64,000 nt of DNA from an uncultured Spirochaetota bacterium. Its GTDB lineage: Bacteria; Spirochaetota; Spirochaetia; SZUA-6; Fen-1364. The translations under genes and the position numbers were made by a program. The notes below the pieces were generated by a model. The model made no database searches. It saw nothing but the letters and a program-made list of their open reading frames with translations, and was not told the DNA's origin. Location: the NCBI GenBank assembly GCA_963734545.1, contig CAVTHO010000007.1, positions 64,001 to 128,000 of the forward strand, given 5' to 3'. Of the stretch, positions 26,749-29,808 are shown in pieces; the first letter of the stretch is position 1, and each line of letters starts with the position of its first letter.

Positions 26749-27402
26749 TCAGGTCAGGCCGCGCTTCACCGCGAACAGCGCCGCCTGCGTCCTGTCGGCA
26801 AGGTCGAGCTTGGCAAGGAGATTTCCGACATGGGTCTTCACTGTCTTTTCGCTGATGAACAGCTCTTTCGCGATCAGCTTGTTGGAAAGCCCGCGGCCCA
26901 GACAGCGCAGCACGTCCTGCTCGCGGGACGTCAGCAGCTCCTCGGGCCGATTCTGCGCCCCGCCCGCGATGCCGCTCATCAGCCGCCGCGCGACCTCCGG
27001 GTTGAGCCGGACCTCTCCGCGCGCCGCCGCCTTGATCGTCTCCGCCAGCTCCTCGGGTCCCACGTCCTTCAGGAGGTAGGAGACAGCGCCCGCGCGGATG
27101 GCGGGAAACAGCTTGTCGTCCTCCGCGAAGCTCGTGAGGACGATGATCGAGATTTCGGGATGCGCTTCGTGCAGCCTGCGCGTTGTCTCGATGCCGTCCA
27201 TCCCCGGCATCACCAGGTCCATGAGCACCACCCGCGGCTGCGCACTATCGGCAAGGGCGAGCGCCTCGGGTCCGCTGGCGGCTTCTCCCGCCACCTCGAT
27301 GCCGTCCACCATGCCCAGGAAATTCCGCAGGCCTTCCCTGACCACCGCGTGATCGTCGACGATCATTACCCGGACCGCATCGGCTGACTTTTTCCGCATC
27401 AT
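26749..27402 (-). CDS. NarL/LiaR-family response regulator
   Basis: IVDDHAVVREGL, LMDLVMP, LTSREQDVL..GLSNKLIAKELFISEKTVKTHV. Confidence 0.94.
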   Translation of the reverse strand: MMRKKSADAVRVMIVDDHAVVREGLRNFLGMVDGIEVAGEAASGPEALALADSAQPRVVLMDLVMPGMDGIETTRRLHEAHPEISIIVLTSFAEDDKLFPAIRAGAVSYLLKDVGPEELAETIKAAARGEVRLNPEVARRLMSGIAGGAQNRPEELLTSREQDVLRCLGRGLSNKLIAKELFISEKTVKTHVGNLLAKLDLADRTQAALFAVKRGLT

Positions 27403-28599
27403 GCTCCTCCCGGATCCAATGGGAGCCGTACCTCGATCTCGGTTCCCTCTGCCGGCGCCGAGCGTACGCAGACAGTGCCTCCGAGCGCTTCGACCCGCTC
27501 GCGAATGGACTGCAGCCCGTAGCTTTCAGGCTGCCGGTCGGCTTCGGGGTCGAAGCCCCTGCCGCTGTCCCGGACGCGCAGCGCAGCCTCGCGCGGGCTG
27601 AAAGCGAGCGTCACTTCTGCCTCCCCGACTCCGGCATGCTTGAAGACATTGCTCAGGGCTTCCCGCGCGCTGCGGAACAACGCATCCTTGACGGCCGCGG
27701 CTGCCCGGCTCATCGCCTTCCACGGTCAGCTTGACCCGCAGGCCGTCCCTCCGCTCGCGCAGCGCCGCATGGCGCTCCAGGGCGCGCACAAGCCCGGCCT
27801 CGGCCACCGATTGCGGCCGCAGCTCGTCGATCAGCAGCCTCATCTCGGAGAGCGCGTCCCGCGCCAGCTCCTGCAGCCGGTCGAGCATTCCCGGGACGCG
27901 CGCCGGGTCCTGGCCGATCGCCATTTTTGCCGCCTGCGCGGTGAGGTTCATGCTGAATACCGTCTGCGTCGCCGCGTCATGGAGCTCCCGCGCCAGGCGC
28001 GCGCGCTCCTGCGCCGCCGCCGCCTCTTCGGCCTGCTCCGCGTATGCGCGGAGGCGGCGGTTGGCTTCCTCGAGGCGCTCCAGGAGCTCTTCGCTCTTCT
28101 TCCGCGCGGCTTCCGCGGTGCGGGACGCGCGGCCGTACAGGCCGATTATCAACGAGCCGGCGATGTAGACGGTGGCGAACGGGGCGGCCGCGCGCAGCCC
28201 GAAAGCCGCGATCAACCCGGCGGTCAGCATCACGCAGATGGCGGCCAGCCATTTCACGTCCGCCCCGTGGGGGAGATATTGCACCGCGACAATGCTGAGA
28301 CTGATGAAAAGAAGCGCGTAGTAGTCGAGCCGCGGTTCGGTGAGGAGAAGCGTGCAGATGACGGCGGAAGCCAGGGCGAGGTGGACGTGAATCCACCCTG
28401 CCCAGCGCCGGCTGATTGCGGGCAGCAGGATGCTCAGCGCGAGAAAGACTGCCAGGAGGCCATAGACGATTTCATGCACCGCGCCTTCCTCGGGGGTACG
28501 CAGGAGAACCCGGATCAGGACGGAGAGGTAGGCCAGGAAGTAGAGGATGAACGGCAGGGGAGACTCCGGGTGGAAGAACGCGGCTCTCTTCGTGGCCAC
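27399..28599 (-). CDS. HisKA_3 membrane sensor kinase, frameshift near 27705
   Basis: Multiple TM segments, ERARLARELHD, then EALSNVFKHA, DSGRGFD, YGLQSIRER. Confidence 0.9.
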
Positions 28600-28647
28600 A
28601 GCGCGATTCTAGCAGATTTGCCGTATTTGGCAAGCCGAGGGCGGAGT

Positions 28648-28757
28648 AAAAAAAAGCCGGCTGCTGCCGGCTTTTAAGAAATCCGGTCGATGGTCTGCCA
28701 CTGGCGGTTTCCATCCCGGATTCAACTGGTAGATGAGGGACATGCCCTCTCTCCACT
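28648..28757 (-). ncRNA. Candidate structured small RNA (about 110 nt) ending in an intrinsic terminator
   Basis: Own promoter; two hairpins (28729-28756, 28679-28723); terminator AAAAGCCGGC-AGCA-GCCGGC-T8. Confidence 0.65.
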
Positions 28758-28761
28758 TTCA

Positions 28762-28790
28762 ATGGTAGCACCGGGAGGCGCCGTTGTCAA
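28762..28790 (-). promoter_or_regulatory. Sigma70-like promoter of the candidate sRNA
   Basis: TTGACA-N17-TACCAT, with TG two bases upstream of the -10 (extended -10). Confidence 0.7.
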
Positions 28791-28824
28791 CTTTTCGACG
28801 CGGGTGGCCCCGCCTCCCGGAAGG

Positions 28825-29808
28825 TCATCTCTCCAGCACTCTCTCGATCTGGGTCATCTGGTCCGGACTCAAAGGACCGCGCGCGAGGGCCCCGGCGTTC
28901 TCCTCCACCTGCTTCACCGTGCGGAAGCCGGGAATGGGAATGGTGCGCGCGCTCCGCGCCCACAGCCAGGCAATGGCGCCCTGCGCAAGGGACCGTCCGC
29001 CGCTTTCCAGGATCTGGCGGATTGCATCGCGCTTCTGCAGCCACTCGGCATCAGGGGCCCCGCCCTTGAAATACTTCATCCATTCAGGGCTTTTCTCACC
29101 GCGCACGTCGTCGGCCGAAGGCCTCGTCTGGGCGCTGTATTTGCCCGTGAGGAGTCCCATGGCCAGGGGGCCGCGATTGATGGCGGCAAGGTCGTTCTTT
29201 TCGCACACGGCAAGCACGGCTGGATTGTCATCCAGCACATTGAGCTGGAGCTGGATGGAGGTGCATTTCGGCCCCTGGGCAAAAGCTTCGGCGCGATCCG
29301 GGAAATCGGTGCTCCAGCCGTACGCCCGGATTTTCCCTTCCTTGACCAGCGCCTCCAGGGTGTCGCGGACCGGGCCGGACTTGTCCGCTGGGTAGCCATT
29401 GTCGTGGAACTGGTACAAGTCGATGTAGTCCGTGTTGAGACGTCGGAGAGACGCCGCGCATGCCTCGCGGATATGGGCGGGAGAGGCGTCCCCGCCGCTC
29501 ACCTGCCTCGTCTTTTCGTCGAAAACCGAGTTGAACTTCGTGGCGATGACAACGCTCCTGCGCCGGCCGTCCAGGGCCCGGGCGAGCACCCGTTCGCTGT
29601 GCCCCGCCCCATAGACGTCCGCGGTGTCAAAGAAGGTCACGCCCAGGTCCATGGCGCGATGCACGGCGCGGATGGATTCCTTGTCGTCCACCTGGCCCCA
29701 GCCCAGGGGCGTATCCCCGTTCCAGAAGGGACCCCCGATTGCCCAGCAGCCCATGCCCAGGGCGCTGACCTCGATACCCGATCTGCCGAGTGTGCGTGTA
29801 AGAGCCAT
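28825..29808 (-). CDS. Aldo/keto reductase
   Basis: VSALGMGCW, FFDTADVYG, IATKF, IDLYQFH, PIPG. Confidence 0.93.
   Translation of the reverse strand: MALTRTLGRSGIEVSALGMGCWAIGGPFWNGDTPLGWGQVDDKESIRAVHRAMDLGVTFFDTADVYGAGHSERVLARALDGRRRSVVIATKFNSVFDEKTRQVSGGDASPAHIREACAASLRRLNTDYIDLYQFHDNGYPADKSGPVRDTLEALVKEGKIRAYGWSTDFPDRAEAFAQGPKCTSIQLQLNVLDDNPAVLAVCEKNDLAAINRGPLAMGLLTGKYSAQTRPSADDVRGEKSPEWMKYFKGGAPDAEWLQKRDAIRQILESGGRSLAQGAIAWLWARSARTIPIPGFRTVKQVEENAGALARGPLSPDQMTQIERVLER

Follow-up and report, generated by a model that had tools for sequence, protein, structure and literature searches.

What is encoded between the aldo/keto reductase and histidine kinase genes of an uncultured Spirochaetota bacterium (GenBank assembly GCA_963734545.1; class Spirochaetia, order SZUA-6, family Fen-1364), in a stretch where nearly every base appears to belong to a hairpin? 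The DNA analysed here, called the window throughout, is the 64,000-nucleotide (nt) stretch at positions 64,001 to 128,000 of contig CAVTHO010000007.1, and positions are counted from its first letter. A preliminary description of the minus strand at 28648-28790 had proposed a stand-alone small RNA (sRNA) of an undescribed class, with an attenuator as the alternative. Homologues, covariation, a promoter of its own and varied neighbours all support the first of these. The region is best read as a real, independently transcribed sRNA gene of ~105-109 nt, from a family absent from Rfam, that would act in trans and whose 3' module would be recognized by a protein partner; on present sequence evidence this reading is given a probability of about two in three.

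A promoter-to-terminator unit

The elements named in the preliminary description (a TTGACA-N17-TACCAT promoter, a first hairpin P1, a linker, a long hairpin P2 and a terminator) are all present on the minus strand where it had placed them:

28785-28790, minus strand: -35 hexamer TTGACA (promoter scan; read in the sequence)
28762-28770, minus strand: extended -10 element TG-c-TACCAT, with TG at 28770-28769 and TACCAT at 28767-28762
28648-28756, minus strand: predicted RNA, ~105-109 nt (covariance-model match C7:92648-92756)
28731-28754, minus strand: P1 hairpin, with a purine-rich 5' arm, loop CAUGU and a pyrimidine-rich 3' arm (minimum free energy, MFE, fold)
28724-28730, minus strand: J1/2, single-stranded linker ACCAGUU (fold and alignment)
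28679-28723, minus strand: P2, long irregular hairpin with base GAAUCCGG/CCGGAUUU, inner stem GAUGG/CCAUC and an apical stem
28676-28678, minus strand: J2/T, linker CUU, within a conserved YCUUAAAA stretch
28648-28675, minus strand: bidirectional intrinsic terminator AAAAGCCGGC-AGCA-GCCGGC-U8 (terminator scan; 10 pairs, six of them G-C)

The promoter scored 10 of 12 in the scan, with a 17-nt spacer between the -35 and -10 elements; two promoter-like sites were found in the surrounding 5-kb region, against 0.3 +/- 0.6 expected from shuffles. The terminator stem-loop, AAAAGCCGGC-AGCA-GCCGGCUUUU, occupies 28675-28652 and its U run continues to 28648, with the 3' end of the RNA predicted to fall within the U run at 28655-28648. 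The MFE structure of the 118-nt stretch consists of exactly three hairpins, P1, P2 and the terminator, at -50.7 kcal/mol; shuffled versions gave -31.6 +/- 3.4 kcal/mol (z = -5.58), and none of 200 folded as well. A 10-nt inverted repeat, CCGGGAGGCG / CGCCTCCCGG, flanks the -35 hexamer (28811-28820 and 28771-28780, minus strand) and is absent from the nearest relative.

Homologues and distribution

A blastn search of the 121-nt element against 61 genomes returned full-length matches, at 73-90% identity, in 12 other genomes, and one partial match. When 14 loci were aligned with their flanks, the -35 TTGAC (in all 14), the -10 and the full RNA up to and including the U run were in register, whereas the sequences before the -35 and after the terminator could not be aligned except among close relatives. 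The 14 sequences were used to build a covariance model (R1), which gave a single match in each of 16 of the 25 genomes of the family, including all seven with at least 90% completeness and at most 5% contamination; other families of the order gave matches that were full-length but weaker. A second model (R2), built from 23 sequences, all of them copies from the order and all lacking the open reading frame (ORF) described below, matched 30 of 92 order genomes, in six families. Absences are soft, with 25-150 first-look candidates scored per genome and many genomes incomplete. By family, the R2 matches were:

Family f1: 15 of 24 genomes, plus the window's own
Family f2: two of five genomes
Family f3: two of two genomes
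Family f4: none of two genomes
Family f5: four of eight genomes
Family f6: five of 21 genomes
Family f7: none of 24 genomes
Family f8: one of five genomes, a terminator-only hit, which was discarded

Carriers among named genome records are metagenome-assembled genomes (MAGs) labelled Spirochaetia, Spirochaetaceae or Spirochaetota. Scanning metagenomes with a 19-mer of the RNA gave 22 stretches, of which 19 hold the complete RNA, in ~13 new sequence variants; each of the 19 has a TTGAC-type -35 immediately upstream, exact in 18 (read by eye). A 1587-nt contig labelled Candidatus Micrarchaeota archaeon (L061) has a reductase-RNA-kinase order almost identical to that of the window (100.3 bits), and very probably comes from a spirochete and was misplaced in an archaeal MAG during binning.

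Conservation of the promoter and structure

Of the 30 ORF-less copies from the order, 29 are preceded by a sigma-70-type promoter with a score of 9 of 12 or better. The spacer is 17 nt in 26, and in 26 the -10 ends 3-5 nt ahead of the first model position, at P1; transcription is therefore predicted, from this geometry, to start at the foot of P1, at about G28756-G28754 in the window.

Pairing was assessed mainly on a 30-sequence alignment (A4). This alignment and A3 were fitted to the covariance model, and both exclude one 78-nt sequence with only the terminator (L172, family f8); alignment A2 was not used, being contaminated by ten opposite-strand or partial matches, seven of them the terminator alone. 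Standard pairs fill 93.1% of the cells of A4, against 78.0 +/- 0.8 in shuffles, and 23 of the 33 pairs have changed on both sides, against 14.5 +/- 1.8; none of five measures was reached by any of 500 shuffles. Sliding the partners by 1-3 columns lowered pairing to 33-50%. Both-side changes are found in all eight model pairs of P1 and in 14 of 15 in P2 (6/7, 4/4 and 4/4 for helices 3-5), so that 22 of the 23 pairs outside the terminator covary, over six families. The 23-sequence alignment has 19 compensatory pairs among 33. The J1/2 linker is C/A-rich in the window's family and A-rich in the others.

The terminator follows a different pattern. Its AAGCCGG/CCGGCUU core is identical in all 30 copies, which come from genomes of 35 to 61% G+C, and seven of its 10 pairs never vary; such constancy across this range suggests recognition rather than mere termination. 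The best-conserved unpaired sequence is the YCUUAAA stretch just ahead of it. The possibility that this is simply a common type of terminator in the window's genome was rejected, the pattern AAAGCCGG-N3-10-CCGGCTTT occurring at this one locus only in 5.14 Mb. The terminator is considered bidirectional because its A-tract and U-tract are symmetric, and the covariance model also matches its opposite strand.

Comparison with known RNA families

The preliminary description recognized no known RNA family here, and none was found. Across the window, none of the 4227 models of Rfam 15 reached its gathering score. With permissive settings, 28500-28900 yielded five matches only, all with E >= 0.86, the highest scoring 15.7 bits against a cut-off of 45. 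The best of these sub-threshold matches, skipping-rope RNA (RF02924), aligns by no more than chance with the opposite strand of the terminator region, scoring 15.3 bits where the gathering score is 36.7 (E = 0.86). Rfam searches of 20 loci with related elements in other families gave no match at the elements.

Two housekeeping RNAs were considered by name. The bacterial small signal recognition particle (SRP) RNA (RF00169) of this genome sits on another contig (C5:335155-335253, 58.9 bits). No 6S RNA (RF00013) was matched across the genome, with a model so insensitive that it matches only five of 14 control genomes. The ends of 6S RNA pair to make a long rod with a central bubble; here the MFE fold and the consensus both have three independent hairpins, with unpaired ends and no closing stem or bubble, and a 6S architecture was rejected. 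Full-text literature searches, and passages of PMC5737381 and PMC8632094, gave no account of this RNA or of a uvrC-linked motif in spirochetes; the supplementary motif lists of those papers could hold one. The RNA family is a new one, not in Rfam, of what its sequence indicates to be a known kind of element, the stand-alone sRNA.

Relatives with a Pro-Pro mini-ORF

Across the class, R2 matched 26 of 151 sampled genomes, and the module was found in 24 further class genomes. Twenty-five loci outside the order were examined, omitting L199, which overlaps L191 on the other strand. In these, P1, P2 and the terminator are the 3' half of a longer unit. Its 5' part has an A-tract, a TTGACA promoter, a leader of 60-90 nt, an AGGAGG site, a start codon, 0-4 further codons and then two proline codons (Pro-Pro); a hairpin GCCGG-loop-CCGGC follows, and then P1, (G)UGA, P2, YCUAAA and the terminator. 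The frame running from the Shine-Dalgarno (SD) site and start codon through Pro-Pro is 8-22 codons long and always in frame, and was detected in 20 of these 25 loci and in none of the 30 from the order. The hairpin was detected in 17 loci; it begins exactly 10 nt past the second Pro codon in 16 and 9 nt past it in the remaining one, and its arms are identical to those of the terminator. The mini-ORF form is carried by loci L174-L197 (for example L180:1501-1600 with 130 nt upstream, L185 and L188).

The surroundings also differ. The uvrC gene is directly upstream and co-oriented in 16 of the 25 loci but in none of the 30 from the order; convergent holA is downstream in 11, with lexA next in three, and neither uvrC nor holA is near any of the 30 ORF-less copies. 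One ORF-bearing copy that is not beside uvrC has a group II intron domain (RF00029, 47 bits) just upstream (L187:827-898). The window's genome has uvrC, holA and lexA, but uvrC abuts holA with no element between them: at C5:385001-388228 (L230), uvrC (+) and holA (-) converge, their stop-to-stop frames overlapping by ~85 nt, and lexA lies behind holA. The Pro-Pro-hairpin module was found neither anywhere in this genome nor upstream of the window's RNA.

The two forms share GUGAGAUCUG, CUAAAAGCCGG and a UAAUCAG loop, and the hits show coherent synteny. Within a wider family that otherwise has the Pro-Pro mini-ORF, the window's RNA appears to be the branch without it. The order has probably lost the uvrC-linked unit and kept the 3' module alone, under its own promoter, elsewhere in the genome; the direction of this loss is read from the distribution, not from a rooted tree.

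The mini-ORF itself looks like a ribosome-stalling device rather than a source of functional peptide. Translation of Pro-Pro depends on EF-P. With the second Pro codon in the P site of a paused ribosome, a spacing of 10 nt would bring the foot of the hairpin to the ribosome's entry. That the fixed spacing makes the unit a stall-sensing device in these relatives is speculation. Leaders with proline codons, Salmonella mgtP/mgtL among them, are reported to respond to the state of Pro-tRNA or EF-P (PMC3641672, PMC5299641, PMC6460261). The relatives are like such attenuators in having a tiny ORF with consecutive Pro codons followed by hairpins, and a terminator whose arms equal those of the ORF-proximal hairpin. 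They differ in that the gene past the terminator is convergent holA in 11 of the 25 loci, often leaving nothing to attenuate, and the window's version has no ORF and a candidate antiterminator that is unsupported.

Neighbouring genes

The genes around the RNA in the window are all on the same strand:

29808-28825, minus strand: aldo/keto reductase gene, upstream
28599-27526, minus strand: HisKA_3 histidine kinase gene, downstream
27402-26749, minus strand: LuxR-type response regulator gene, further downstream

The kinase gene has its own promoter-like site, as the preliminary description had noted (TTGCCA-16-TAGAAT at 28633-28606), and this is conserved in the nearest relative. The kinase is split across two overlapping frames, with HisKA_3 in 27526-28599 and HATPase_c in 27399-27713 (minus strand); the split implies a frameshift near 27700, either because the gene is broken or because the assembly is wrong there.

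Three loci have the reductase and kinase as neighbours. The identity of the upstream gene changes from locus to locus, yet the unit running from the promoter through P1 and P2 to the terminator remains in register. Downstream, a PTA_PTB acyltransferase gene follows on the same strand in seven of 23 loci, and the others have unrelated genes. The arrangement of sRNA and then PTA_PTB, the latter with its own TATACT -10, is the commonest context in the window's family (L008, L151, L152, L160, L162, L163 and L165); in five of these, where the fetched DNA reaches the next gene, a convergent 3-oxoacyl synthase-like gene comes after PTA_PTB. Either the RNA has moved in the window's subclade or its neighbours have been exchanged. 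In five further loci (L167, L168, L170, L202 and L207) a convergent gene comes next, at a distance of 2-65 nt; the gene calls are crude, made by a heuristic based on G+C content at third codon positions (GC3) that misses some genes (such as PTA_PTB in L151 and L008), and only these five adjacent convergent cases were used. The preliminary description had taken a constant downstream gene as a sign of action in cis and a variable one as a sign of action in trans; the neighbours are variable.

Alternative explanations

The alternative raised at the outset was an attenuator or leader acting in cis on the downstream gene, with the P2 3' arm and the terminator 5' arm forming an antiterminator. A seven-pair helix between CCGGAUUU of the P2 3' arm and AAAGCCGG of the terminator 5' arm is possible in the window's family; the acyltransferase gene is co-oriented downstream in its seven loci, and the Pro-Pro mini-ORF relatives resemble leader-peptide devices. 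The helix is the one plausible antiterminator. It has, however, no compensatory pairs, is paired to 81.9% against 81.6% in shuffles, and is broken in 10 of 29 sequences (columns 114-130) exactly where P2 covaries. Nor does any order copy have the leader ORF, while the downstream genes are of no constant class (HisKA_3 kinase, PTA_PTB and others), the adjacent gene is convergent in five loci, and the kinase gene has a conserved promoter of its own. A general leader role for the RNA is rejected and the attenuator is improbable; a family-specific influence of the RNA on the downstream gene may exist. A passive origin, either as the 3' untranslated region and terminator of the upstream reductase gene or as a functionless, decaying relic of the Pro-Pro unit, would fit two observations: there is no terminator between the reductase stop (28825) and the element, so that reductase transcripts probably end at the sRNA terminator, and the mini-ORF, present in most loci outside the order, is missing from the order's version. 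It is nevertheless distinctly improbable, since the upstream gene varies while the unit from promoter to terminator stays in register, covariation of 22 of 23 non-terminator pairs over six families requires continued selection on structure, and a relic would not retain a consensus promoter in 29 of 30 copies.

Very improbable, too, is a housekeeping RNA in disguise, such as a divergent 6S-like regulator of RNA polymerase or another abundant ribonucleoprotein RNA. Its promoter is near consensus with an upstream A-tract, it is single-copy, and no 6S RNA was detected in the genome; against this, the silence of so insensitive a model means little, the SRP RNA is present elsewhere, the fold is three separate hairpins and not an end-closed rod with a central bubble, and 62 of 92 order genomes lack the RNA, including all 24 of family f7. 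A small protein gene, finally, is scarcely credible. The preliminary description observed that P1 hides an SD-like sequence and an AUG, and both are there in the window, with GGAGAGAGGG ahead of an AUG in the P1 loop that opens a 44-codon frame (28743-28609). The AUG is not conserved, however, being missing in most of the 14 aligned homologues, and the frame is disrupted by 1-nt indels among them, including a 1-nt deletion in the nearest relative; it also passes through the terminator, and substitutions track base-pairing, not codon position. The 44-residue coding reading was rejected for its non-conserved AUG and frame-breaking indels.

Several points weigh against the reading as a trans-acting, protein-recognized sRNA. 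The existence, ends and abundance of the transcript are predictions from the sequence. Nine of the 25 family genomes have no match, two of which are 96-97% complete (G002 and G015), so the RNA is not universal in the family or some copies were missed by the search. The fitting of A3 and A4 to the model inflates the percentage paired, and an independent MAFFT/RNAalifold analysis of 14 close sequences, while giving identical helices, has compensatory changes in only seven of 33 pairs. The base of P2 (CCGG) can pair with the terminator arm, and a conformational switch may exist in the window's family alone. Homology between the ORF-less and ORF-bearing forms is based on model scores (E of 1e-7 to 1e-3 per genome) and shared motifs, not on a tree. 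A duplex scan of sRNA nt 15-50 against 6008 crude start-codon windows of one genome gave no stand-out target, and the poor conservation of J1/2, the would-be seed, between families says nothing positive for protein binding. The best duplex in that scan (-40.1 kcal/mol, against a mean of -21.0 +/- 4.2) lies inside a glycoside-hydrolase-like gene (identified from its translation, without a family search); it was taken as chance, with no BLAST match to the RNA listed there.

Possible mode of action

Action in trans is proposed because the RNA persists under selection without the mini-ORF and without a constant downstream gene. If it does act in trans, recognition of the 3' module by a protein is the favoured route, although at somewhat less than an even chance: the module is invariant, its hairpin is reused beside Pro-Pro in the sister lineages, and J1/2 is poorly conserved. 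A stable G-C hairpin is a poor seed and a good protein site. The YCUUAAA stretch, the GCCGG...CCGGC hairpin and the U tail would then be a sequence-specific recognition site for the protein partner, with P1 and P2 as a scaffold, and the RNA would work by binding that protein or as its decoy. Ranked second, and more doubtful, is base-pairing with mRNAs by way of the C/A-rich J1/2 and the pyrimidine-rich 3' arm of P1, a route weakened by the poor conservation of the would-be seed between families.

As to what the partner might be, neither Hfq (PF17209) nor ProQ (PF04352) was matched in the window's genome, which is 89% complete. CsrA (PF02599) is present; its titration was considered unsupported, GGA motifs being scarce in the RNA and absent from its loops (read by eye).

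In outline the RNA resembles the Hfq-type sRNAs of enterobacteria, which are also ~100 nt long with their own sigma-70 promoter, a 5' hairpin, a single-stranded linker, a U/A-rich stretch before a U-tailed terminator hairpin, and a variable neighbourhood. It differs from them in the lack of a detected Hfq or ProQ gene, in having as its best-conserved part the terminator stem and preceding stretch rather than a single-stranded seed, and, as from all Rfam sRNAs, in having no sequence or model similarity. The relatives recall dual-function sRNAs (SgrS/SgrT, RNAIII/hld, SR1/SR1P) in joining a mini-ORF and a structured RNA in one short transcript, but their 8-22 codons are conserved mainly as Pro-Pro and a hairpin at 10 nt, and the window's RNA, like all 30 order copies, has no ORF.

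A more comprehensive account, unlikely as a whole, would derive the RNA from an ancient Spirochaetia riboregulator, of which it would be the core without the peptide; that riboregulator would sense ribosome stalling at Pro-Pro and thereby the status of EF-P or prolyl-tRNA. In the ancestral unit, a ribosome paused on Pro-Pro would abut the GCCGG/CCGGC hairpin 10 nt downstream; that hairpin and the invariant terminator would be docking sites for one RNA-binding protein; and the ORF-less version of the order would be a constitutive decoy or scaffold for it.

Significance

Few regulatory RNAs are known to us in spirochetes, and those come from a handful of pathogens; to our knowledge no protein-titrating sRNA is known in the phylum. 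The sequences described here make up a well-supported, widespread RNA family in free-living, mostly uncultured Spirochaetia of peat, fen and sediment, with a clean definition from promoter to terminator that can be used directly for Rfam-style models and genome annotation. The ORF-bearing and ORF-less lineages are a natural pair for seeing how a translation-sensing leader becomes a free-standing RNA, and if the riboregulator or decoy reading is true, the RNA would represent a new class of protein-titrating sRNA in the spirochete phylum.

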